From Candidatus Firestoneibacteriota bacterium (GTDB lineage Bacteria > Oederibacteriota > D2-FULL-39-29 > CAIOVX01): 64,000 bases of DNA. The stretch lies in assembly GCA_903861835.1 (NCBI GenBank), contig CAIOVX010000060.1, forward strand, positions 100,504-164,503, given 5' to 3'. Numbering within the stretch: position 1 is the first letter of the stretch; every line of letters begins with the position of its first letter. The notes beneath the pieces are model-generated. The model saw only the letters and a list, made by a program, of their open reading frames with translations. It did no database searches and was not told the DNA's origin. A program made the translations under genes and the position numbers. Positions 6,547 to 63,799 of this stretch are shown in pieces.

Positions 6547-6785
6547 TGAGAGTACTCTTTTTCTTCATCGGCGGCGCTATAGCCGCCTTTCTTGTCTGCA
6601 AGTTCTTCGTCCTGAGCGGTTCTGAACTCGAAACTCTCGGGGCATTCTGGAACAACCTCGGCACCGAGAAACCGCAGAATGTCGAGACCCTGGTAAAATC
6701 AGGCGCATTTTTGAAACTCATTGTGGGGATGGCTCTCGGCGGGTTCCTCGGAGCGCTCTTCAGCAATGTTTTCGGAAACGATTAA
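6546..6785 (+). CDS. Small hypothetical membrane protein, 79 aa with 2 TM helices
   Basis: GAGGA SD 8 nt upstream. Its ATG overlaps the M48 stop. Hydrophobic segments present. Confidence 0.4.
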   Translation: MRVLFFFIGGAIAAFLVCKFFVLSGSELETLGAFWNNLGTEKPQNVETLVKSGAFLKLIVGMALGGFLGALFSNVFGND

Positions 6786-6801
6786 GGACCAAGGACGGCA
6801 A

Positions 6802-7911
6802 ATGTTAAAAACCATACGAGTTAAATTAAACACTTCTTCCAACCGTTCCTATTCAATAATAATAGGGCGCGGCATACTGGGAGCCGCGGGCAAAGCCCTA
6901 AAAAAACTCGGAGTTGGCAAGGATCTTTTCCTGATTACCGATTCCAATGTCAACCGGTTGTACGGAAGAGCGGTGCTTAGCAGTTTCAAGCGGGCCGGCT
7001 TTAAAGGCACCGGCAAGTCTGTCATCAAAGCAGGGGAACCGAGCAAATCCCTTGCCTCTTTCGCTAAAATTCAAAATGCTCTGTATGGGTTTGACAGGAG
7101 CGGTGACCGGCAGATAACAATAGCGACGCTCGGCGGCGGTGTTCCCGGAGACCTCGGCGGCTTTGTCGCCGGCACCTACAAGCGCGGTGTGAGCTTCATT
7201 CAGATACCTACCACCTTGCTTGGATTCGTGGACTGCGGGCTTGGCGGAAAGACCGCGGTAAACTTCAGGGAAGCAAAGAATTCCATAGGCATCTTTTGGC
7301 AGCCGAAAATGGTGTATATGGATTTAGAGGCTCTAAAGACCCTGCCGCTCCGTGAACTAAAATCGGGACTGGCTGAAACCTTAAAGTACGGCGTGATAAG
7401 CGACCCGCGGCTCTTTGATTACCTTGAGTTCAATTCCGACAGATTACTTGCTCTCGATATGGCGGTTTATGAAAAGATTATTCCGGCCTGCGTTAAAATA
7501 AAGGCGGATGTTACTTCTGCTGACGAGCGGGATGAGAAAGATATCCGCATAATGCTTAACTTCGGGCATACCGCCGGGCACGCGATAGAAGCGGCGACAA
7601 ATTACAAAAAATACACCCATGGCGAAGCAATAGCTCTCGGTATGCTCATCGCGGGGCAGATAGCAAAAGAACTCGGTCTATTTAAAGAAGCTGACCTCTT
7701 CCGCCTTGAAAATCTCACCGAAAACCTGGGCCTGCCGGTAAAACTCTCCGGCTGCAAAGTGAGTTCTGTACTAAATGCTATGAAGCATGACAAGAAGTTC
7801 AAATCAGGAGTGAACCGCTTCATACTCCCGGTCAAAATAGGCTCCTGCAAAGTCGTCAACAACATCCCTGAAAAAGTAATCGCAAAAGCAATCAAATCCA
7901 GAATGGCTTAG
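6802..7911 (+). CDS. aroB: 3-dehydroquinate synthase
   Basis: DHQS motifs GGGVPGDLGGFVA and HTAGHAIE. ATG 6802 follows an AAGGA SD. The ORF-track start at 6721 overlaps the previous gene. Confidence 0.85.
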   Translation: MLKTIRVKLNTSSNRSYSIIIGRGILGAAGKALKKLGVGKDLFLITDSNVNRLYGRAVLSSFKRAGFKGTGKSVIKAGEPSKSLASFAKIQNALYGFDRSGDRQITIATLGGGVPGDLGGFVAGTYKRGVSFIQIPTTLLGFVDCGLGGKTAVNFREAKNSIGIFWQPKMVYMDLEALKTLPLRELKSGLAETLKYGVISDPRLFDYLEFNSDRLLALDMAVYEKIIPACVKIKADVTSADERDEKDIRIMLNFGHTAGHAIEAATNYKKYTHGEAIALGMLIAGQIAKELGLFKEADLFRLENLTENLGLPVKLSGCKVSSVLNAMKHDKKFKSGVNRFILPVKIGSCKVVNNIPEKVIAKAIKSRMA

Positions 7912-7924
7912 TTAATCACCCCCG

Positions 7925-7954
7925 ACAATGAAAAAGGGCGGCTTTCGCCGCCCT
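7925..7954 (+). terminator. Rho-independent terminator after aroB
   Basis: Stem AGGGCGGC/GCCGCCCT, loop TTTC, then TCGTTTTCTT. Confidence 0.7.
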
Positions 7955-8031
7955 TCGTTTTCTTGCTATTTTGTCAGTCAACTGTCCTCTGCCTTCCGTC
8001 TTCCGAACTGCTGCGCCTTCGCACCTCTCAT

Positions 8032-8772
8032 TTAATACGCGTAAAGCCGCCCGTAAGGTCTATGCGAAAATGGATATAGTTTTATAAAATGCGCCTTCAA
8101 TATCTCTTCTGCTTTAAGTTTCGGAAAATATGAACAGTAATCCCTCACGTATTTCTCAAGCAAAACCCTGTCTTTTTCGTCCAGTTCGACCGCCTTTACT
8201 TCCTTGCCAAGCAGCCTCGGGTCTATAGTTTTCGTCCTGATAAAGATTGTGCCTCCGTGCATTCCGGTTCCTACGAAATCCCCCACAGGCAGCTTATCTG
8301 TGCCAAGGCCCAGGACTATCGCCAGCCCTCCGGCCATATATTCTCCGAAGAAATCCTTTACTTCCTCTCCTATTATTACGACCGGAAAGTTTTCTTCGAA
8401 GGCCTTCATATGTATGCCCACGCGGTAGCCCGCGTTTCCGCGGATATAGATCTTCCCGCCTCTCATCGAATAGCCGACGATATCGCCCGCGTTTCCGTGG
8501 ACGACAATGAGCCCGCTGTTCATAGTATTGCCGATGGCGTCCTGCGCGTTCCCGTGAACGATTATCTCGGGCCCGTTCATAAAAGCTGCCATATCGTTCC
8601 CCGGCACGCCGTTTATGACAAACTTGACCTTCTTGCTGACCGCGTCGCCGATGTACCTTTGCCCCATGGCGTTGTTTATAACAATCTCGTCAGCGTCCGC
8701 GAGAACCGCGTGAATCTTCTCATTTAAATCCCTATAATGCAGTTTGTCGGCGTCTATTGTTATCTTCTTCAT
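8032..8772 (-). CDS. Glutamate synthase C-terminal GXGXG beta-helix domain subunit, archaeal-type GltB3
   Basis: Repeated VHGNAGD, IRGNAG and VINGVPGND units. ATGA start/stop overlap with the upstream gene. Confidence 0.75.
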   Translation of the reverse strand: MKKITIDADKLHYRDLNEKIHAVLADADEIVINNAMGQRYIGDAVSKKVKFVINGVPGNDMAAFMNGPEIIVHGNAQDAIGNTMNSGLIVVHGNAGDIVGYSMRGGKIYIRGNAGYRVGIHMKAFEENFPVVIIGEEVKDFFGEYMAGGLAIVLGLGTDKLPVGDFVGTGMHGGTIFIRTKTIDPRLLGKEVKAVELDEKDRVLLEKYVRDYCSYFPKLKAEEILKAHFIKLYPFSHRPYGRLYAY

Positions 8773-10043
8773 ACTTCAGTACCCTCTCCGGTCACAAAGT
8801 GTTTCCTGAAATCCGTAGGAAGCAGCAGGAAACCGAAATCATCAGTCAGCAATTCTTTCTTCAGCGCCAATACATCCAGTTTTTCCTTTATCAAAAGGCC
8901 GTAGATGCCTGCGCGCTCTATACAGTTGACGAGTATCACGCCCACCAGCCTGTTATCCTTTACGACTATTTTCTTGTACTTTCCTTCACCGCTCTTTTTA
9001 ACAACCTCATAGCCGTCCTCTTTGGGGTTGGTTATCCCGAACGAGATTGAAGGCACTCCGAGTATTTCCACAGAGTTCATCGCGAAGCTTCCGCCAAACA
9101 CATCCTTCGCTCCGGACATATTATGCCCGGCCACTTTTCCCTGCTTAGCGGCGGTCGGCCAGATCGCGATAACCGCGCCCTTTCCGGAGAGGAATTCCAG
9201 CCCTTCGGCGCAGTCTCCCGCGGAAAAAACACCCGGCACATTCGTTTCCATCCTGGCGTCAACGACAATGCCTCGGTTTACCGCTATCGGCGTGCCTTTG
9301 GCGAGAGAAACCTCCGGGCGCACGCCCACAGCCATAATCAGCAGTTTCGCTTTCAGCTTCTTTCCGTTGCTTAGGACCAGCTCTTCTATTTTGCCGGCCT
9401 TTGAAACTACCTTCTTTATGGTGGTCTCTTTAAGAAACTCGCAGCCGTTCTCTTTCAATTTTTCTTCAATGATGGCTGAAGCTTCTCTGTCGAACGTATT
9501 GGCAAGCAGACGGTCGGCGATATCAAGAATCTTGAACTTCATCTTCTTGCCGAGCAGGGCTTCGGCGGCCTTCATACCGATAAGCCCGCCGCCGAGAATC
9601 ACGGCTTCTTTTACCTTGTTCTTCTCTATGTATTTTTCTATCTCTTTCGCATCGGCTAATTTTGTAAATGTGAACACTCCCGAAAGATTATCTTTCAGAC
9701 CGTCTACAGGAATCTTTATCGGTGTTCCGCCCGAGCAGATAAGCAGCCGGTCATAGGGCAGTTTCTTTTTGTTATTGATTTCGACATGGCGGCTTTTCGT
9801 CTCTATCTTCACCGCTTCGGTGTTATAAAGCACTTTCACGCCCATATCTTTCTCGAAATCCGTCGAGGTAAAACCGATCTTATCCTTGCTAAGCTTGCCC
9901 GCAAGGTAGTACGAGATCAGGGGGCGCGAGTAGAGCCGGTCCTCGTTGCTAATGACCGTAATCTCTCCTGTTTTGTCCGATTCCCTTATGGCGGTTATGG
10001 CGTTTACAGCAGCCACGGAATAACCCACTATCACATATTTCAT
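8769..10043 (-). CDS. FAD/NAD(P)-dependent oxidoreductase, NADH:ferredoxin (rubredoxin/putidaredoxin) reductase-like
   Basis: N-terminal VIVGYSVAAVNA dinucleotide fold, LYSRPLISYYL motif, a second GGGLIGMKAA fold, and no redox-active Cys42. GGGAGA SD present. Confidence 0.7.
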   Translation of the reverse strand: MKYVIVGYSVAAVNAITAIRESDKTGEITVISNEDRLYSRPLISYYLAGKLSKDKIGFTSTDFEKDMGVKVLYNTEAVKIETKSRHVEINNKKKLPYDRLLICSGGTPIKIPVDGLKDNLSGVFTFTKLADAKEIEKYIEKNKVKEAVILGGGLIGMKAAEALLGKKMKFKILDIADRLLANTFDREASAIIEEKLKENGCEFLKETTIKKVVSKAGKIEELVLSNGKKLKAKLLIMAVGVRPEVSLAKGTPIAVNRGIVVDARMETNVPGVFSAGDCAEGLEFLSGKGAVIAIWPTAAKQGKVAGHNMSGAKDVFGGSFAMNSVEILGVPSISFGITNPKEDGYEVVKKSGEGKYKKIVVKDNRLVGVILVNCIERAGIYGLLIKEKLDVLALKKELLTDDFGFLLLPTDFRKHFVTGEGTEV

Positions 10044-10065
10044 AAGCTTCTCCCGTTAACAGTTC

Positions 10066-10506
10066 TTACTTTTTCATTTTTATTGCTTCGTTGGGGCAGT
10101 GCTCCACGCAGGCCGGTGTTTCGCGGTCTCCGCAAAGGTCGCATTTTGAAGCCACTCTCTTATTCTTCAAGTCCGGCTTAATGACTCCAAAAGGACAAAC
10201 CATTATACACATCCAGCAGCCGACGCATTTATCCTTGTCGTGAAGGACCGTTGCTTCCTTGTCCTTGTACATAGCCGAGGTAAGACAGGCCTCGATGCAA
10301 GGCGCGTCGTGACAGTGCCTGCACTGCAGGGCGAAGGTGGTATAACCGCATTTTTCGAAAGCAATGCAGGAATCCGTAAGCGGCTTGAAACCTTCGGACT
10401 TGAAGGTCTTGATTATGTCCTTGGATTTCGAGTGCGCGGTAACGCAGTGCACTTCACAGAGCCTGCACCCTAGACAGTATTCTTCATTTATCACTATTCT
10501 TTTCAT
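10066..10506 (-). CDS. Polyferredoxin with several 4Fe-4S clusters
   Basis: Several CxxCxxCxxxCP motifs. Upstream is a GGGGGAAAGAGG SD. Confidence 0.8.
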   Translation of the reverse strand: MKRIVINEEYCLGCRLCEVHCVTAHSKSKDIIKTFKSEGFKPLTDSCIAFEKCGYTTFALQCRHCHDAPCIEACLTSAMYKDKEATVLHDKDKCVGCWMCIMVCPFGVIKPDLKNKRVASKCDLCGDRETPACVEHCPNEAIKMKK

Positions 10507-10555
10507 ATTCGCCTCTTTCCCCCTGGTTTTCAGTGCCTTCCCGCTAAAAACTCTC

Positions 10556-10694
10556 TTCTTTGATGCTTGGACGGTTGGATGTTTAGATGATTAGACGTTG
10601 GAATAAAACATCTTTCCATCCGGATCCTTTTGAGGTAGAGGTTTTGACCTTGCTTTTAAGCATCCAACCCTCTAACCTTCCAACCATCCAACAA
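10556..10694. repeat. Family A interspersed intergenic element, full copy R2
   Basis: Homologous to 1299..1431 in the same orientation. It starts 1-2 nt after the gltB2 stop and ends about 50 nt before the ferredoxin ATG. Confidence 0.75.
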
Positions 10695-12188
10695 CTACCA
10701 GGCTTCGCCTGCGTGCTTAATATCCAAAAGCCTGAGCTCAAGCTCGGTAAGGTCCACACCGCGAAGCTGCGCGCGGTTGCCGCGGAGAGATTCAAGCGCG
10801 TTTATACCCATTCCGCCGAGCATTTCTTTTATTTCAAGAGACCACGCCCGAAGAAGATTAAAAGCCCTCGTAGCGCCCACATCCGGATTCAACCTCTTCT
10901 TCAGGTTTGGATCCTGGGTCGCGATACCCCAGTTACATTTTCCCGTGTAGCATTTCTGGCAGAGATGACAGCCGAGGGAAATAAGCGCCGAGCTTCCAAT
11001 GTAGCACGCGTCAGCTCCCAGCGCTATCGCCTTAATAATGTCTCCGGAATTTCTGAAACCGCCGGCGGCGATGACTGAAGCCCTCTGGCGTATTCCTTCT
11101 TCCCGAAGCCTCGTGTCAACCGAAGCAAGCGCGAGCTCTATCGGAATACCTACATTATCCCTAATCACAGTCGGAGCGGCTCCGGTGCCGCCTCTGATAC
11201 CGTCTATCACAACAAAATCCGCTCCTGCCCTTACAAGACCTGAAGCTATAGGGGCAATATTATGAACGGCGGCAATTTTCACGCCCACCGGTTTTGAATA
11301 TCTGGTTGCTTCTTTAAGCGCAAAGATCAGCTGTTTCAAATCTTCGATTGAGTAAATATCATGGTGGGGCGCAGGTGAAATGGCGTCCGACCCGACAGGA
11401 ATCAATCTGGTTCTGGAAACTTCCTCATCAACTTTTTCTCCCGGAAGATGCCCGCCGATGCCGGGTTTCGCGCCCTGCCCGACCTTTATCTCAATGGCCG
11501 CCGCAGAATTCAGGTATTCGGTGTCTACTCCGAACCTGCCTGAAGCTACCTGAACGATCACATTCTTGGCGTAGGGTTTTAGGTCACGGTGCAAACCGCC
11601 CTCGCCGGTATTCCAGTAGGTGCCGTATTCCGTCGCCGCTTTCGCGAGCGATTTCTGGGCATTCAAGGATATCGACCCGTAGCTCATCGCGGAAAACATT
11701 ATCGGGGTTGTAAGTTTTAACTGGGTGGAAATCTTCTGCTTGGGTTCGAACTTATCGGGTTTGCTGCCTATGAAGGTTGTGAGTTCCATCGGCTCGCGGA
11801 GCGGGTCAATGGAAGGATTTGTGACCTGTGAAGCGTTAAGCAATATATGATCGAAATATTCTTTGTATTCCTTATCGCTTCCCATACCGGTAAGGAGTAT
11901 TCCGCCGGTTTCGGCCTGTTTTATAATGCCGTAAACATCCCCCGCCTTCCAGTGGGCATTCTCCTTTATCTCCGGAGCGCTCTGCACTATGGTAATAGCC
12001 GAGGTCGGGCAGATATCCTCGCAGAAATGGCAGCCGACGCAATTCCCGTCGCAGGAAGAGAGGGTATTGCTCTCCTCGTCATAAAGATGCGCGTCGTTGC
12101 TGCACATGCGGACACAGGCCTGGCACTTTATGCACTTATCCGGGTCCCTGTTTATTTTGAAATTTCCCCTGAATTTAGACTTTGCCAT
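10695..12188 (-). CDS. Glutamate synthase FMN-binding subunit with an N-terminal 2x[4Fe-4S] ferredoxin domain, archaeal-type GltB2
   Basis: CIKCQACVRMC...CVGCHFCEDICP, then the GOGAT FMN/TIM-barrel region including GGTGAAP. Confidence 0.85.
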   Translation of the reverse strand: MAKSKFRGNFKINRDPDKCIKCQACVRMCSNDAHLYDEESNTLSSCDGNCVGCHFCEDICPTSAITIVQSAPEIKENAHWKAGDVYGIIKQAETGGILLTGMGSDKEYKEYFDHILLNASQVTNPSIDPLREPMELTTFIGSKPDKFEPKQKISTQLKLTTPIMFSAMSYGSISLNAQKSLAKAATEYGTYWNTGEGGLHRDLKPYAKNVIVQVASGRFGVDTEYLNSAAAIEIKVGQGAKPGIGGHLPGEKVDEEVSRTRLIPVGSDAISPAPHHDIYSIEDLKQLIFALKEATRYSKPVGVKIAAVHNIAPIASGLVRAGADFVVIDGIRGGTGAAPTVIRDNVGIPIELALASVDTRLREEGIRQRASVIAAGGFRNSGDIIKAIALGADACYIGSSALISLGCHLCQKCYTGKCNWGIATQDPNLKKRLNPDVGATRAFNLLRAWSLEIKEMLGGMGINALESLRGNRAQLRGVDLTELELRLLDIKHAGEAW

Positions 12189-12215
12189 TTTAATCCTCTT
12201 TTCCGCAATTAGCGT

Positions 12216-12252
12216 CTTTTACTTTATAAACCTTATGAACTTTATAAACTTT
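12216..12252 (-). promoter_or_regulatory. Family C motif AAAGTTTATAAAGTTCATAAGGTTTATAAAGTAAAAG
   Basis: Overlaps the gltB1 stop codon and ends about 30 nt before the gltB2 ATG. Homologous copies lie at 36421..36454, 20155..20200 and 20307..20350. Confidence 0.4.
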
Positions 12253-13360
12253 TTGTTTTTGTAAACACCCCTATCACCGGCTTCCCCGCGTCAGGCATCC
12301 AGATGCGGTCAAGCACGGGGCTGACCGTGCGGATGGAGGCTTCTTCCGAAGCAATAAATAATTTCGACCCCTTCTCCCCGCAGACCAGAGGCCTAAGTTT
12401 GGTCCTGTCGTTTAAGCCAAGCATCATATTGCCGTCTGAAACTATTATCGCGAACGGCCCGTTCAAGAGCGCCGGCGCATAGATCATACGCATTCTGGTG
12501 TGCAGCTCCTTTTCTTCCGGGCTCATCCGGTCTATCTGAGACCAGAAGGGAGCAGCTATGGCCTTGCAGGCGTACTCATAGGAGAGCCTGTGCTTCCTGA
12601 CCAGCAAGTCAAAAAGATAAGCAATAACTTCCGTGTCGGTAAAGAGCGTGCAATAATATCCGAAGTTCTCAAGATACCTTCTGTTTATACCGTAGGAGGA
12701 AATCTCTCCGTTGTGCACCACGGTCCAGTTTAGCAGACCGAAGGGATGCGCCCCGCCCCACCACGCCACGGAGTTGGTAGGAAACCTGTTATGCGCAGTC
12801 CAGATATTGGCCTTGTAATCCGGTATCTTGAAAAATTCCGCTATTTCATCGGGGTTGCCGACGCCCTTAAACGCGCCCATATTCTTGCCGGAGGAGAAGA
12901 TAAAAGCTTCTTTTACCGTGCGGTTGAGCTCAAAAGCTTTTTCAGCGGTGTATTCGTCTTCAATTTCTTTCTTTGAGAAATCTTCAAGGAAGATGAGTTT
13001 CTCTTCTTTAGGCTTAAGGAAATACCTCTTCAGTATCGGAGGAGTTTTAAGGGTCTTTACAAACTTGGTCGGTATAGGTTCCGCGAGCCGGATATCAAAG
13101 TTCTTCTTCAGGAAAGCTTCCGATTCTTCAACAGCCGCTTCTCTGCCGAACATCATATGGAAACAATAGTAGTCCGCATGCTCGGGATAGATACCGTAAG
13201 CCGCGTAGCCGGAACCGAGACCGTTACCCCTCTCCATCATATTGCAGATAGAAGCAACGATATCCCCGCCGGAAAACACCGCGCCGCTTCTATCCATAAT
13301 ACCGGTTACGCCGCAGCCAGAAGGTATCTTATGAAGCCTGTCATCTAAAGGTCTTAACAT
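12242..13360 (-). CDS. Class II (Ntn) glutamine amidotransferase subunit, archaeal-type GltB1
   Basis: GATase-II features include an N-terminal propeptide before CGVTGI. ATG at 13360 with AGGAGA SD. The ORF track extends to TTG 13381. Confidence 0.8.
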   Translation of the reverse strand: MLRPLDDRLHKIPSGCGVTGIMDRSGAVFSGGDIVASICNMMERGNGLGSGYAAYGIYPEHADYYCFHMMFGREAAVEESEAFLKKNFDIRLAEPIPTKFVKTLKTPPILKRYFLKPKEEKLIFLEDFSKKEIEDEYTAEKAFELNRTVKEAFIFSSGKNMGAFKGVGNPDEIAEFFKIPDYKANIWTAHNRFPTNSVAWWGGAHPFGLLNWTVVHNGEISSYGINRRYLENFGYYCTLFTDTEVIAYLFDLLVRKHRLSYEYACKAIAAPFWSQIDRMSPEEKELHTRMRMIYAPALLNGPFAIIVSDGNMMLGLNDRTKLRPLVCGEKGSKLFIASEEASIRTVSPVLDRIWMPDAGKPVIGVFTKTKSL

Positions 13361-13386
13361 CTTGTTCTCCTGTCTTCCCAAAAAAA

Positions 13387-13419
13387 ATGTCCGCCGCGGC
13401 TTTTAACCGCGGCGGACAT
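13387..13419 (-). terminator. Perfect 13-bp GC-rich hairpin followed by U8, in the GOGAT leader
   Basis: ATGTCCGCCGCGG, loop TTAAAAG, CCGCGGCGGACAT, then TTTTTTTT on the minus strand. It lies between promoter 13448..13476 and the gltB1 SD. Confidence 0.55.
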
Positions 13420-13447
13420 CATTGTCTGCCACATCACTGTTTCAAAA

Positions 13448-13476
13448 TTATATATCAGCGCCAACCGCTTGTCAAG
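13448..13476 (-). promoter_or_regulatory. Perfect-consensus sigma70 promoter TTGACA-17-TATAAT on the minus strand
   Basis: TTGACA is the reverse complement of 13471..13476. TATAAT is the reverse complement of 13448..13453. Predicted TSS near 13441. Confidence 0.6.
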
Positions 13477-13579
13477 CGCTCTTTTCGGAAAAAAGGCCTG
13501 TTTCCGGCTCCCGAGAGGCTATTCCTCCGGAAAAATATGTTTTTATGCAAAAGAAAGGCGGCCGGAGAATACTCCCGGC

Positions 13580-15352
13580 TTACGGCCGCTTGACACCGTG
13601 CTCCGCAAGCTTCTCTGCCGCAGGTCCAAAGGTTTTCTCAAACTCCAGCGCCTTTAAATAAGATGCAACCGCCTCATCCTTTCGGCCGAGCTTGTCCAGT
13701 ATTAAACCCATATTGTAGCGCGCATCAGCGTAATAAGAATTCAACGCTATCTCTTTTTCAAATTCAAGCCTGGCCTCTTCATATTCTCCGCGGGTATAGT
13801 AAATATTACCTTTATAAAAATGGGTGCGCAGATCCCTCGTGTAATCAAGACCGTCGCTAAGCCGCAAAGACCTGTCAAAATACGCGAGCGCCTCAGGGTA
13901 CCTGCTCCGGTCATACAAGAGTATGCCGTAACCGGTTTCCAGGTTAGAGACAAAATATAGCGCCGCGACGGCAACCGTCAGCAGAAGAACGAAAACGGAG
14001 CCGGTAAGAAATACTATCCCGTAAAACCTGTTCTTTATTCCGGAAACAACGCCCTGCCCTGATAACAACACTCCGCAGTAAACGCAGAAGGTTCCGAAAA
14101 GCGGGGCCAACTTCATGGGAAAATTAAAGAAAGCATGTACGGCGTAACCCGCGACGGCGGCGAGCAGGCCAAAATACAATATTCTTTCCGTGCCGCTTTT
14201 TTCTTTTGCCGCGGAGAACCCGAACGCCAGGGAAAAACCTATTATCAGGAGGAAGATAAATACGCCGAAGATCCCGAGCTCAGCCCAGATTTGTATATAA
14301 TCGTTGTGCGCGTCCTTCGTCATCTGGTAGGGATAATCCGTGTAACCGGGAGAGTTGAGCACGCGCCCTTCATATTTGGAAACGTATACTTTATAGGAAG
14401 CCGCGCCGAAACCGGTGAGCGGTCTTTCCTTTATCATCTCAAGCCCGGCCTTCCACATAACGAGGCGCCCGCGCTCCGAGAGTGTTTTGAAACTCCCGGC
14501 GCTCTTTAGCTTGGAAAAAGCTTCTTGCGGGTGCATCACGGCAACCGCCGAGATACCAAGCAAGGAAAGTACCAGCAGGGAAAGGATGAGTTTCTTTCTC
14601 TTTTCCCGAGCATAAGACAAGGTAAGGACGATAAAGAACAGAAATCCCAGCGCCGCCGAGGCCCAGGCATTAGCGGTCTCCGTCTTGACAAGGCAGAGCA
14701 GACCCAGCAGGGTAGCGCTTCCGTAGTAGACGGCCTTTTTGAGCCCGTCAGACCCTATGAAAAGCGCAAAGGCTACCGGCACAGAGAGGACAAGATAACC
14801 TCCGAAGAAATTTGCGTTTCCCATCGTCGAAGAAATTCTGTCTTTAAACTTTAGGAACTCGAGCGAACGTTCCGTAAAGAGGAGGTTCATAGTCAGTTCA
14901 AAGAAATCTATGTGAAAAACCTGCAAGAGGCCGAGCAAAGAAGCGACAATAGTGGCGGCGCAAACAGCGTTCCCGAAACCCGCAAGGTTCTTCTTATCCG
15001 AGGCTGCGCAATGAGCCGCGCCCAGAACAAGCACTCCGTAAAGCATAATATCCAAAGCGTATTTAAGCGAAACTAGTTTGTTGGCAGAATAAATACAGGA
15101 GAGCAGGGAAAGCAGAAAGAACGCTGAAAAAAGCGCGGCCACGGGGACCGACAGCCTAACCTTCTTTAAAACTCCGCGCTTTGCAAGCAGAGCCCCGAGC
15201 AGAGCGCAAGCTGCATATACAAACAGGTTCTTGGGCGCGCTAAAAGCGTCTTTGGCTGCGGGAAAATAGAGCAGAGGCGCAAGGAACAGTATCAGTATGA
15301 TTATCGCTGCCATCAGGCAATTATGGCATTTGGAAAAGCTTATTTTCAACAT
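13580..15352 (-). CDS. O-antigen ligase (Wzy_C) family membrane protein with a C-terminal TPR domain
   Basis: DAHNDYIQIWAELGIFG O-antigen ligase motif, many TM helices, and TPR repeats at the C-terminus. Confidence 0.8.
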   Translation of the reverse strand: MLKISFSKCHNCLMAAIIILILFLAPLLYFPAAKDAFSAPKNLFVYAACALLGALLAKRGVLKKVRLSVPVAALFSAFFLLSLLSCIYSANKLVSLKYALDIMLYGVLVLGAAHCAASDKKNLAGFGNAVCAATIVASLLGLLQVFHIDFFELTMNLLFTERSLEFLKFKDRISSTMGNANFFGGYLVLSVPVAFALFIGSDGLKKAVYYGSATLLGLLCLVKTETANAWASAALGFLFFIVLTLSYAREKRKKLILSLLVLSLLGISAVAVMHPQEAFSKLKSAGSFKTLSERGRLVMWKAGLEMIKERPLTGFGAASYKVYVSKYEGRVLNSPGYTDYPYQMTKDAHNDYIQIWAELGIFGVFIFLLIIGFSLAFGFSAAKEKSGTERILYFGLLAAVAGYAVHAFFNFPMKLAPLFGTFCVYCGVLLSGQGVVSGIKNRFYGIVFLTGSVFVLLLTVAVAALYFVSNLETGYGILLYDRSRYPEALAYFDRSLRLSDGLDYTRDLRTHFYKGNIYYTRGEYEEARLEFEKEIALNSYYADARYNMGLILDKLGRKDEAVASYLKALEFEKTFGPAAEKLAEHGVKRP

Positions 15353-51770: not shown

Positions 51771-52829
51771 TTATTTGCGGGCCTTTACGAATATTTTCCC
51801 CTGATACTGCTTCAGATAACCCTTTAATTCCAGACCGACAAGCACAGAAAGCACTTTACTTACTTGCATTCCGCAGGTCTTGGCTATATCGTCCACGTGA
51901 ATCTCTCCTTCTACGGCAGAAAATACACGACTTTCTTCCTCGGAAAGGCTGATTATCGGTAGTTCTATCTGTCCGCTCCTGTTAAAAAATCCTTCGGGGA
52001 GCACTCCTGACAGTTCGCTTACAATATCCTCGGCGCTTTCTACCAGCTTTGCGCCGGCTTTAATCAGCCCGTTAGTACCTTTGCTCATTGCGCTCGTTAC
52101 ATTTCCGGGGAGCGCAAAAACCTCGCGCCCCTGTTCAAGCGCGTATTTAGCAGTGATAAGAGCCCCGCTTTTTTCACCCGCTTCAATAACCAGCGAGCCG
52201 AGTGAGAGCCCGCTGATAACACGATTCCTGCGCGGAAAATTCCACTTTTCTGGGCCCAGCAACAGCGGAAACTCAGAAATAAGCGCCCCGTTTTCGCAAA
52301 TCTTTTCGGCAAGCCCGCGATTCTCTTCCGGATATATTTTCAAGAGTCCGGTCCCGAGCACAGCCAATGTCCTGCCGCCTCTCTTTAGCACAGCCCCGTG
52401 CGCCGCGGAATCTATCCCTCGTGCAAGACCGCTGACAACACAAAACCCCAGAGCCGACACTTCAGCCGAAAGCTTTTCGGCCTGGCTTCTGCCGTAAACC
52501 GAGGGCTTCCGGCTTCCTACTACGCCTATGGCAATGAGATCTTCCTGCTTGAGTTCGCCCTTTATATAAAGGATGTAGGGCGGGTCCGGAATGTATCTTA
52601 GTGGAGCGGGGTATCCGGGATCTTCAATCCCGAGTATCTTCACATGTGATTTGCCGGAAAAAACTATCTCTTTGTCGGCGGCAATAAGCGCCTCTTTCTC
52701 TTCCTTCCCCTTATGCTTCAGGGCTTCCCGGAGAACAAGCGCATCGTCGCGCAGCTTTTCCTTGAGCTCCCTGTACATAAGGGGAGTCACTCCCGCGATA
52801 TTAAGCGCGGCCAGTTCCCTTATGCTCAA
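51771..52829 (-). CDS. dprA: DNA processing protein DprA (Smf)
   Basis: GLARGIDSAAH motif and the Rossmann DprA domain. TTG start with GGGAG SD. Confidence 0.85.
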   Translation of the reverse strand: MSIRELAALNIAGVTPLMYRELKEKLRDDALVLREALKHKGKEEKEALIAADKEIVFSGKSHVKILGIEDPGYPAPLRYIPDPPYILYIKGELKQEDLIAIGVVGSRKPSVYGRSQAEKLSAEVSALGFCVVSGLARGIDSAAHGAVLKRGGRTLAVLGTGLLKIYPEENRGLAEKICENGALISEFPLLLGPEKWNFPRRNRVISGLSLGSLVIEAGEKSGALITAKYALEQGREVFALPGNVTSAMSKGTNGLIKAGAKLVESAEDIVSELSGVLPEGFFNRSGQIELPIISLSEEESRVFSAVEGEIHVDDIAKTCGMQVSKVLSVLVGLELKGYLKQYQGKIFVKARK

Positions 52830-52884: not shown

Positions 52885-52914
52885 ATTATATAAATAAATC
52901 CTGTCTTATGTCAA
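52885..52914 (-). promoter_or_regulatory. Sigma70 promoter TTGACA-18-TATAAT upstream of dprA-topA-xer-arg
   Basis: -35 is the reverse complement of 52909..52914. -10 is the reverse complement of 52885..52890. Confidence 0.55.
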
Positions 52915-54120: not shown

Positions 54121-54156
54121 AAAAAGGGCTCCCGCTCTCGCGGAAGCCCTTTTGTT
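54121..54156. terminator. Bidirectional rho-independent terminator after rplQ
   Basis: GGGCTCCCGC, loop TCTC, GCGGAAGCCC, flanked by A5 and T-rich runs. Confidence 0.7.
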
Positions 54157-63473: not shown

Positions 63474-63799
63474 TAGAACACCTCGCTGCACTTCTTGCAC
63501 ATTCTGGACTTCTTGCCGTCCTTCAACATTTTCATACCTATCTTTGTCGGCCTGTTGCAACGCGGACAAAGAATCATTACCTTTGAAACAGCGATAGGCG
63601 CTTCTCTCTGTATTATGCCGCCCTGCTGCGCCTGCTTATTGGGCCGTGTATGCTTTTTGACAAAGTTGACGCCTTCGATTATAATCTTGAAAGTTTCTTT
63701 TTCAGTGAGAGGGAATAGTTTTAATATTTTGCCTTTCTTGCCCTTTTCATCACCGGTAATAACCTGAACTGTGTCGCCTTTTTTAAGATTTGTGTTCAT
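63473..63799 (-). CDS. rplX: 50S ribosomal protein L24
   Basis: KOW motif [20 protein letters not shown]. Confidence 0.9.

Follow-up and report, generated by a model that had tools for sequence, protein, structure and literature searches.

How transcription reaches the glutamate synthase operon in the stretch of DNA considered here (64 kb; hereafter, the window), and what controls it, is a question raised by a perfect consensus promoter that leads, almost immediately, into an intrinsic-terminator-like hairpin. From this order of elements, a preliminary description of the window proposed an attenuator or a riboswitch, possibly under the control of a protein, and considered the alternative that the hairpin belongs to the gene upstream. 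The analysis presented here indicates that the leader is very probably a regulated attenuator of one kind or another. The more specific reading, for which a probability of about 0.6 appears appropriate, is that this is an ANTAR-type cis-acting transcription attenuator of the glutamate synthase (GOGAT) operon.

The gene directly downstream of the leader, gltB1, encodes a class-II glutamine amidotransferase and is the first of five genes of a split archaeal-type GOGAT operon on the minus strand (8032..13360). The domain hits along the operon are GATase_2 (gltB1 itself, 12242-13360), Fer4 together with the Glu_synthase FMN domain (10695-12188), a 4Fe-4S protein (10066-10506), a Pyr_redox_2 flavoprotein (8769-10043) and a GXGXG domain protein (8032-8772), and the gene order is the same in the ENA assemblies that contain an identical protein. 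The operon ends with an intrinsic terminator on the minus strand, AAGGGCGGC-GAAA-GCCGCCCTT with a T-run (7934..7955), that was detected in a scan for strong hairpins. This hairpin is flanked by A's and T's and lies between the convergent genes for the GXGXG protein (8032-8772, minus) and dehydroquinate synthase (6721-7911, plus), and is probably a bidirectional terminator. Inside the operon, the genes for the FMN-domain protein and the 4Fe-4S protein are separated by an untranslated spacer of 188 nt (10507-10694, minus) that forms a long-range stem (-56 kcal/mol, z = -2.9) and might function in RNA processing or stability or as a site of regulation within the operon. Upstream of gltB1, on the same strand, there is a gene with Wzy_C and TPR domains (13580-15352), in agreement with its earlier designation as an O-antigen ligase. 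The neighboring genes that were scanned with Pfam (about 35 ORFs beyond 27 kb were left out) are housekeeping genes, with no nitrogen regulator among them. The genome record closest to this gltB1 is a Candidatus Firestonebacteria MAG (L001; 96% amino acid identity), and further Firestonebacteria homologues are 68% (L002) and 65% (L003) identical.

The promoter consists of the -35 hexamer TTGACA (13475..13470) and the -10 hexamer TATAAT (13452..13447) on the minus strand, separated by a 17-nt spacer, and matches the consensus in all 12 positions in a consensus scan. The perfect promoter reported in the preliminary description therefore stands, with its coordinates shifted by one base (13475..13447 instead of 13476..13448). 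It is predicted to be of the sigma-70 type and near-constitutive, with a predicted transcription start at about 13440-13442. The match is not due to chance because the window contains three perfect pairs of the form TTGACA-N16-18-TATAAT compared with the 0.04 expected from shuffles, as had been argued before; the 12/12 pair is, however, not unique here, and the genome appears to favor consensus promoters. Perfect pairs are found also at 52885-52914 (minus), upstream of the ORF 51771-52829, and at 63657-63685 (plus), antisense to what, judged by the ORF sizes only, appear to be ribosomal-protein genes.

The order of the elements on the minus strand is TTGACA-17 nt-TATAAT-tttgaaACAGTGATGTGGCAGACAATG-ATGTCCGCCGCGG TTAAAAG CCGCGGCGGACAT-T-run-gggaagacAGGAGAacaag-ATG. 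The terminator, ATGTCCGCCGCGG/TTAAAAG/CCGCGGCGGACAT, has a perfect 13-bp stem (13419..13387, with T's to 13380) that begins about 22 nt downstream of the predicted start and is followed by eight T's (13387..13380), the first of which is also the last paired base of the stem. When extended with RNAfold, the stem reaches 16 pairs, and the consensus scan likewise reports the hairpin as a terminator-like site of 16 pairs, 10 of these G-C; the RNA loop is UUAAAAG. Thus, the two features by which intrinsic terminators are recognized, a G+C-rich stem-loop and a U-run after it, are present as 13-16 pairs and U8. The 88-nt leader folds with an energy of -37.4 kcal/mol compared with -17.8 +/- 2.8 kcal/mol for shuffled sequences (z = -6.95), and the terminator, at -29.7 kcal/mol, is the strongest intrinsic-terminator-like structure of the 64 kb. 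There are only three strong hairpin-plus-T-run sites in the window, and the other two mark the 3' ends of transcription units, namely, the end of the GOGAT operon described above and that of another gene (54151..54124). The Shine-Dalgarno sequence AGGAGA (13371..13366) and the ATG of gltB1 (13360..13358), both on the minus strand, come directly after the terminator, so that the hairpin, the U-run and the gene start are arranged as originally reported. The U-run and the ATG are 20 nt apart. This gap contains no promoter and is too short to accommodate one, so that, as far as can be seen from the sequence, the operon is transcribed only through the terminator.

No antiterminator pairing was apparent when the leader was first inspected, and this part of the preliminary description has to be revised. 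The leader contains a hairpin, P2, with the core GAC[AAUGAU]GUC (13426..13415, minus) that extends to GGCAGAC/GUCCGCC, with 6 of the 7 positions paired (-8.4 kcal/mol); in folding, the extended antiterminator hairpin spans 13432..13409 (minus). For a nascent RNA cut before the 3' arm of the terminator, the minimum free energy structure obtained with RNAfold is GUGGC.GACA[AUGA]UGUC.GCCGC, at -13.0 kcal/mol. This structure sequesters 10 of the 13 nt of the 5' arm of the terminator (13419..13407); by position, the last two bases of the P2 loop, its 3' arm and the extension (13419..13409) coincide with the first 11 nt of that arm, and hence the two folds are mutually exclusive. The full-length RNA prefers the terminator, and therefore a factor is needed to hold P2. 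At the predicted 5' end of the transcript, P2 is preceded by a mini-hairpin, P1, of the form AC[AGUGAU]GU (13440..13431, minus; 5' segment ACAGUGAUGU), which has two Watson-Crick pairs followed by two A.G mismatches and aligns in register with the 4-5-bp P1 stems of its relatives. Both hexaloops, AGUGAU and AAUGAU, have A in position 1 and G in position 4 (A1/G4), and the positions 4-6 (GAU) are identical between P1 and P2.

Alignment of the whole intergenic region with that of L001 delineates the conserved part of this leader. The -35 hexamer is identical, and the -10 hexamer and the segment that runs from ACA to the ATG show almost no changes, in contrast to the DNA upstream of the -35 hexamer, a large part of the promoter spacer and the bases immediately downstream of the -10 hexamer, all of which have diverged. 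In the terminator stem, there are only two substitutions, each changing a G-C pair to G.U; the P2 sequence is identical and the terminator loop is conserved. This pattern bears on another interpretation of the locus, namely, that an unregulated, leaky terminator damps a strong promoter or insulates the operon, without any signal-dependent switching. Such an interpretation is compatible with the lack of an identified regulator and with the decay of the P1 stem in this lineage, but the part of the leader outside the terminator, GAUGUGGCAGACAAUGAU, is perfectly conserved in L001 amid diverged non-coding DNA, and the A1/G4 hexaloop architecture recurs across phyla. Furthermore, a hairpin of -30 kcal/mol with U8 should stop nearly all transcription, and therefore the unregulated form would leave an essential nitrogen-assimilation operon almost silent. 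A merely leaky terminator accordingly appears quite unlikely, and a regulated attenuator is the reading pursued here.

The loci of more distant Firestonebacteria (L002/L081, L003 and L082; 65-68% amino acid identity) have unlike sequences and upstream genes but share a common layout upstream of gltB1: a near-consensus promoter is followed by a short leader with AC-hexaloop-GU and GAC-hexaloop-GU(C/U), the latter of which overlaps the 5' arm of a terminator. The hexamer TTGACA is present also in L002, L003, L007, L082 and L083. The promoter-leader-terminator unit is always located upstream of gltB1 and on the gltB1 strand, and its persistence with this gene in other Firestonebacteria bears out the attenuator layout that was originally proposed. 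The same comparison is informative with respect to the possibility that the hairpin terminates transcription of the upstream Wzy_C/TPR gene and overlaps the promoter region by accident. The hairpin does lie downstream of that gene and on the same strand; however, it is located downstream of the conserved promoter, starts about 160 nt past the Wzy stop codon, and the Wzy_C/TPR gene has its own, weak terminator-like hairpin at 13579..13561. Moreover, in L003 and L082, the Wzy homologue is separated from gltB1 by other genes (in L003, judging from their sequences, these look like araB and araD), and the unit nonetheless directly precedes gltB1; it is found also in L007, L012, L028 and L083, where there is no Wzy homologue in the locus DNA examined. 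The assignment of the hairpin to the upstream gene, which the preliminary description had kept as an option, is thus highly improbable.

If the leader is an attenuator, the nature of the factor that acts on it becomes the central question. The targets of ANTAR-domain proteins were defined as a pair of hairpins, each with a stem of 3 bp or more and an A1/G4 hexaloop, the second of which, P2, overlaps the terminator (Ramesh et al. 2012, PMC3369931). They include those of EutV (eutP) in Enterococcus faecalis, NasR (nasF) in Klebsiella and AmiR (amiE) in Pseudomonas; for Desulfotomaculum and Pelobacter, nitrogen regulons of this type have been predicted. Most of the predicted motifs were upstream of nitrogen genes, including the glutamate synthase genes of Desulfotomaculum reducens (PMC3369931). 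The leader in the window resembles these targets in having A1/G4 in each of the two hexaloops, C-G closing pairs, a P2 stem of more than the minimal 3 bp with a hexaloop, and an overlap of P2 with the 5' arm of the terminator, as well as in its location in the 5' leader of a nitrogen-assimilation operon. As in the ANTAR targets, the terminator is thermodynamically dominant, so that a trans-acting protein is required. Unlike these targets, P1 in the window has a stem of 2 bp, short of the 3 bp in the definition, and lies at the extreme 5' end of the transcript, and P2, with 6-9 pairs, can absorb the 3' arm of P1; its loop, AAUGAU, differs from the AAAGGC and AAGGGC that are frequent among the relatives. 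Between P1 and P2, there is a linker of 4 nt (GGCA); in the eut system, linkers of 5-12 nt are workable whereas those of 3 nt and 14 nt are defective (PMC3369931). The linkers of the motif-bearing relatives span 1-12 nt, however, and therefore the eut range may not apply here. Structural work on EutV-RNA complexes has redefined the minimal ANTAR motif as a single hexaloop, and no natural co-transcriptional example of the single-hexaloop class is given in that study (Walshe et al. 2022, PMC8934654). P2 in the window contains such a hexaloop and, similarly to the sites in that work, is the sole robust A1/G4 hexaloop of the leader and a candidate protein-binding site, with the difference that this single hexaloop would have to act co-transcriptionally, against a terminator. 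The host, a member of the candidate phylum Firestonebacteria, is another difference: no report of such elements in this phylum is known to us.

Leaders of the same kind are found upstream of gltB1 well beyond Firestonebacteria. A descriptor that calls for two hairpins with hexaloops carrying R in position 1 and G in position 4, joined by a linker of no more than 12 nt and accompanied by a U-run at a distance of up to 60 nt, when applied to the 300 nt upstream of gltB1, is matched in 15 of 152 loci compared with 2.0 in shuffles. Clear dual-hexaloop cases come from Thermodesulfobacteriota (L007), Desulfotomaculum copahuensis (L028), a MAG (L012) and a metagenome contig (L083); in these four as well as in L002, the P1 stem has 4-6 pairs. 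Leaders were aligned, as suggested earlier for the orthologous ones, to check for covariation. In the first alignment (A1, 8 sequences), the two helices are 87% paired, with double changes in 8 of the 10 pairs, and another one (A3, ten leaders from outside Firestonebacteria) is 92% paired, with a covariation score of 0.69 compared with 0.28 in shuffles; the two alignments have some sequences in common, and the seeds were partly picked by the pairing-based descriptor, so that the pairing is inflated for the inner 2-3 pairs. In this way, the association of ANTAR-type control with nitrogen regulons is extended to the split archaeal-type GOGAT of Firestonebacteria, Thermodesulfobacteriota, Bacillota and Omnitrophica-like contigs.

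Two covariance models were built, R1 from A1 and R2 from the ten non-Firestonebacteria leaders (A3). In the window, R1 finds exactly one site, the leader itself, and the searches with the two models reveal no further copies of the motif that could belong to a regulon within the 64 kb. On the independent model R2, which was built without Firestonebacteria, the window copy scores 5.6 bits, which is not significant, and is undetected in a search of the whole window, L001 scores 10.6 bits, L003 18.2, L082 18.5 and L002/L081 23.4 bits. The strict version of the descriptor, with stems of at least 3 bp, likewise misses the window copy and picks up three non-convincing sites in the window. Degenerate copies of this type can be missed by model-based scans and recovered by synteny, which is of consequence for genome annotation. 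The ANTAR assignment of the window copy is made because of its positional orthology to the better copies, the A1/G4 loops and the overlap between P2 and the terminator; most likely, it is a reduced descendant of standard ANTAR attenuators and not a textbook member.

The low score of the window copy on the independent model is also a reason to consider a regulated attenuator in which, in this lineage, the long P2 is stabilized by a non-ANTAR RNA-binding protein or by a small ligand. In addition, P1 is vestigial, and its 3' arm is drawn into the extended P2 (-13 kcal/mol), which makes the RNA of the window and L001 look like a single-hairpin switch; no ANTAR gene is present in the Firestonebacteria DNA examined, that is, the window and the flanks of the loci. 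Conversely, A1/G4 is retained in both loops together with the identical GAU, the leaders of L002, L003 and L082 do match the independent model (with modest scores of 18-23 bits), and one hexaloop is enough for ANTAR binding (PMC8934654). As for a ligand, the leader of about 20 nt is too short for the known aptamers, and no Rfam riboswitch matches it, which leaves the riboswitch proposed in the preliminary description without a corresponding family. Altogether, a non-ANTAR factor appears rather unlikely, even if it is the main alternative, and the protein-mediated mechanism that was initially envisaged is the most likely one, with the A1/G4 hexaloops and the adjacency of the leader family to ANTAR genes elsewhere pointing to an ANTAR protein.

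Known regulatory RNAs were surveyed separately. With the models of Rfam 15, including those of the glutamine riboswitches, nothing in the window reaches the gathering score. When the segment 13340-13600 was scanned permissively, only matches far below the gathering score of the respective family were obtained (E of 0.2 or higher), the best two of which fall on the terminator hairpin; known riboswitches and small RNAs are therefore rejected. CsrA-type GGA loops were considered given that P1 of L007 resembles the SELEX consensus, and rejected because most of the loops lack GGA. The BglG/LicT RAT, T-box and glutamine riboswitches were dismissed because the leader is too short and has no Rfam match.

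A direct connection between the leader family and ANTAR genes emerges in other genomes. Among the R1 matches outside the seed, a tandem pair in L099 (1719-1840; 36.4 and 34.3 bits) immediately follows a GAF-ANTAR gene, two sites in L089 (288-325 and 11127-11172; 30.8 and 26.3 bits) lie upstream of an AmtB-like gene and of a GAF-ANTAR gene, and one in L069 (1299-1348) is upstream of a glnA-like gene; weaker matches abut the ANTAR genes of L079, L036 and L142. The ANTAR genes next to such matches are of both the GAF-ANTAR and the REC-ANTAR type. The L099, L089 and L069 sites are textbook dual-hexaloop attenuators and suggest that Omnitrophica-like and other uncultured lineages have nitrogen regulons under GAF-ANTAR control, and the location of an L089 copy in front of its own GAF-ANTAR gene suggests autoregulation. 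The L089 protein contains PF03861 and GAF domains according to precomputed Pfam hits; among the matches listed (at least 120) in a search with this protein, there are only close relatives, at least 81% identical, and the named sources among these matches are mostly Omnitrophica. In total, ANTAR ORFs flank the split GOGAT operon in 8 of 160 loci, all from other lineages, and in the window and the flanks of the Firestonebacteria loci, a search with phmmer and a home-built HMM (160 loci in all) finds no ANTAR domain. Accordingly, the window also differs from the classical targets in having no cognate ANTAR gene within the 64 kb.

Further parallels are the NitR/GnfR-type systems (glnA-nitR with the gltAB operon in Clostridium, GnfK/GnfR in Geobacter), where a REC-ANTAR regulator acts through leader terminators to control the genes for glutamine synthetase and glutamate synthase or those for nitrogen fixation. 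There, the gene for the regulator is linked to its targets; the window has no linked regulator, and its GOGAT is of the split archaeal type with five genes. Both this kind of attenuator and its tie to glutamate synthase are already known, and no new regulatory principle is involved; the novelty lies in the host phylum, in the reduced form of P1 and in the association with split GOGAT operons across phyla.

Under the preferred reading, an ANTAR-type attenuator, transcription would start at about 13440 from the consensus sigma-70 promoter and, by default, would be terminated by the hairpin and U-run (13419..13380) 20 nt before the start codon, to give a transcript of about 60 nt. The nascent leader, in which P1 comes first, would initially fold P2, GGCAGAC[AAUGAU]GUCCGCC, which would hold most of the 5' arm of the terminator, and A1 and G4 in both hexaloops would provide the recognition signature of the ANTAR-domain RNA-binding proteins. 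A regulator of this family, probably responsive to the nitrogen status and presumably encoded elsewhere in the Firestonebacteria genome, would then bind and stabilize P2; it may have a GAF or a receiver sensor domain, as in the other phyla with this operon. With P2 bound, the terminator would be blocked, and RNA polymerase would read into gltB1. Of this scheme, the present analysis shows how the leader is built, that it has been conserved together with gltB1, that its two folds exclude each other and that leaders of this family are linked to ANTAR genes in other genomes; the transcription start, termination in vivo, the regulator and the signal are predictions. The scheme offers a testable model for the switching of glutamate synthase in an uncultured candidate phylum.

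The default product of this scheme could be viewed differently, namely, as the primary function of the locus: the promoter and the terminator would then make up either a separate small-RNA gene, with a product of about 60 nt, or a leader with two functions, and the RNA would act in trans by base-pairing or as a decoy. Decoys that titrate the regulator have a precedent in EutX, which titrates EutV. A consensus promoter combined with a very efficient terminator would give an abundant transcript of about 60 nt, the sequence of the terminator loop is conserved in L001, and in L002/L081 and L082, 145-200 nt separate the unit from the ATG, an interval that contains a further terminator-like element. 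Against a free-standing small RNA, only 20 nt without a promoter separate the unit from the ATG in the window and the operon has no other visible source of transcription, the unit is invariably upstream of gltB1 on the same strand, and no Rfam small RNA family matches it above noise. A function in trans is therefore improbable as an explanation of the locus, and it is compatible with, and does not exclude, attenuation in cis.

A more speculative and rather unlikely variant of the attenuator reading concerns the lineage of the window and L001 alone. Here, the ancestral dual-hexaloop element might have been remodeled in such a way that one long hexaloop hairpin, at the extreme 5' end of the transcript, serves as the antiterminator, resulting either in a natural co-transcriptional single-hexaloop ANTAR switch or, if Firestonebacteria are devoid of ANTAR proteins, in a switch run by a non-ANTAR factor, and the leader of about 60 nt might additionally act as a decoy in trans. 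Whichever the case, the reduced P1 in the window is a natural test of whether one hexaloop suffices for co-transcriptional antitermination.

Two additional conserved or repeated elements were observed in the leaders of other loci. In L002 (2895-2995), L081 (4560-4660) and L082 (5935-5995), the leader has another conserved element, downstream of the attenuator and upstream of the gltB1 ATG. It has the form GUGUCCACC-(3-4 nt)-GGUGAGAUCUCG ... GGGCGGAGAAUC, then U5, and is terminator-like; it is absent from the window and has no Rfam match, and its 5' part is similar to a segment within the gltB1 coding sequence of other loci (GTCCATAACGGTGAGATCTCC). Finally, in L052, which comes from a Moorellaceae MAG and includes a REC-ANTAR gene as well, two copies of a direct repeat, each about 60 nt long (2700-2950), with the pattern GCUG..GCAGCACCA.CAGA.GGAUGAA.AUAG.CAAAG...UUUUCGGGGUAGA are located between an ORF of 478 amino acids, possibly glnA, and gltB1.
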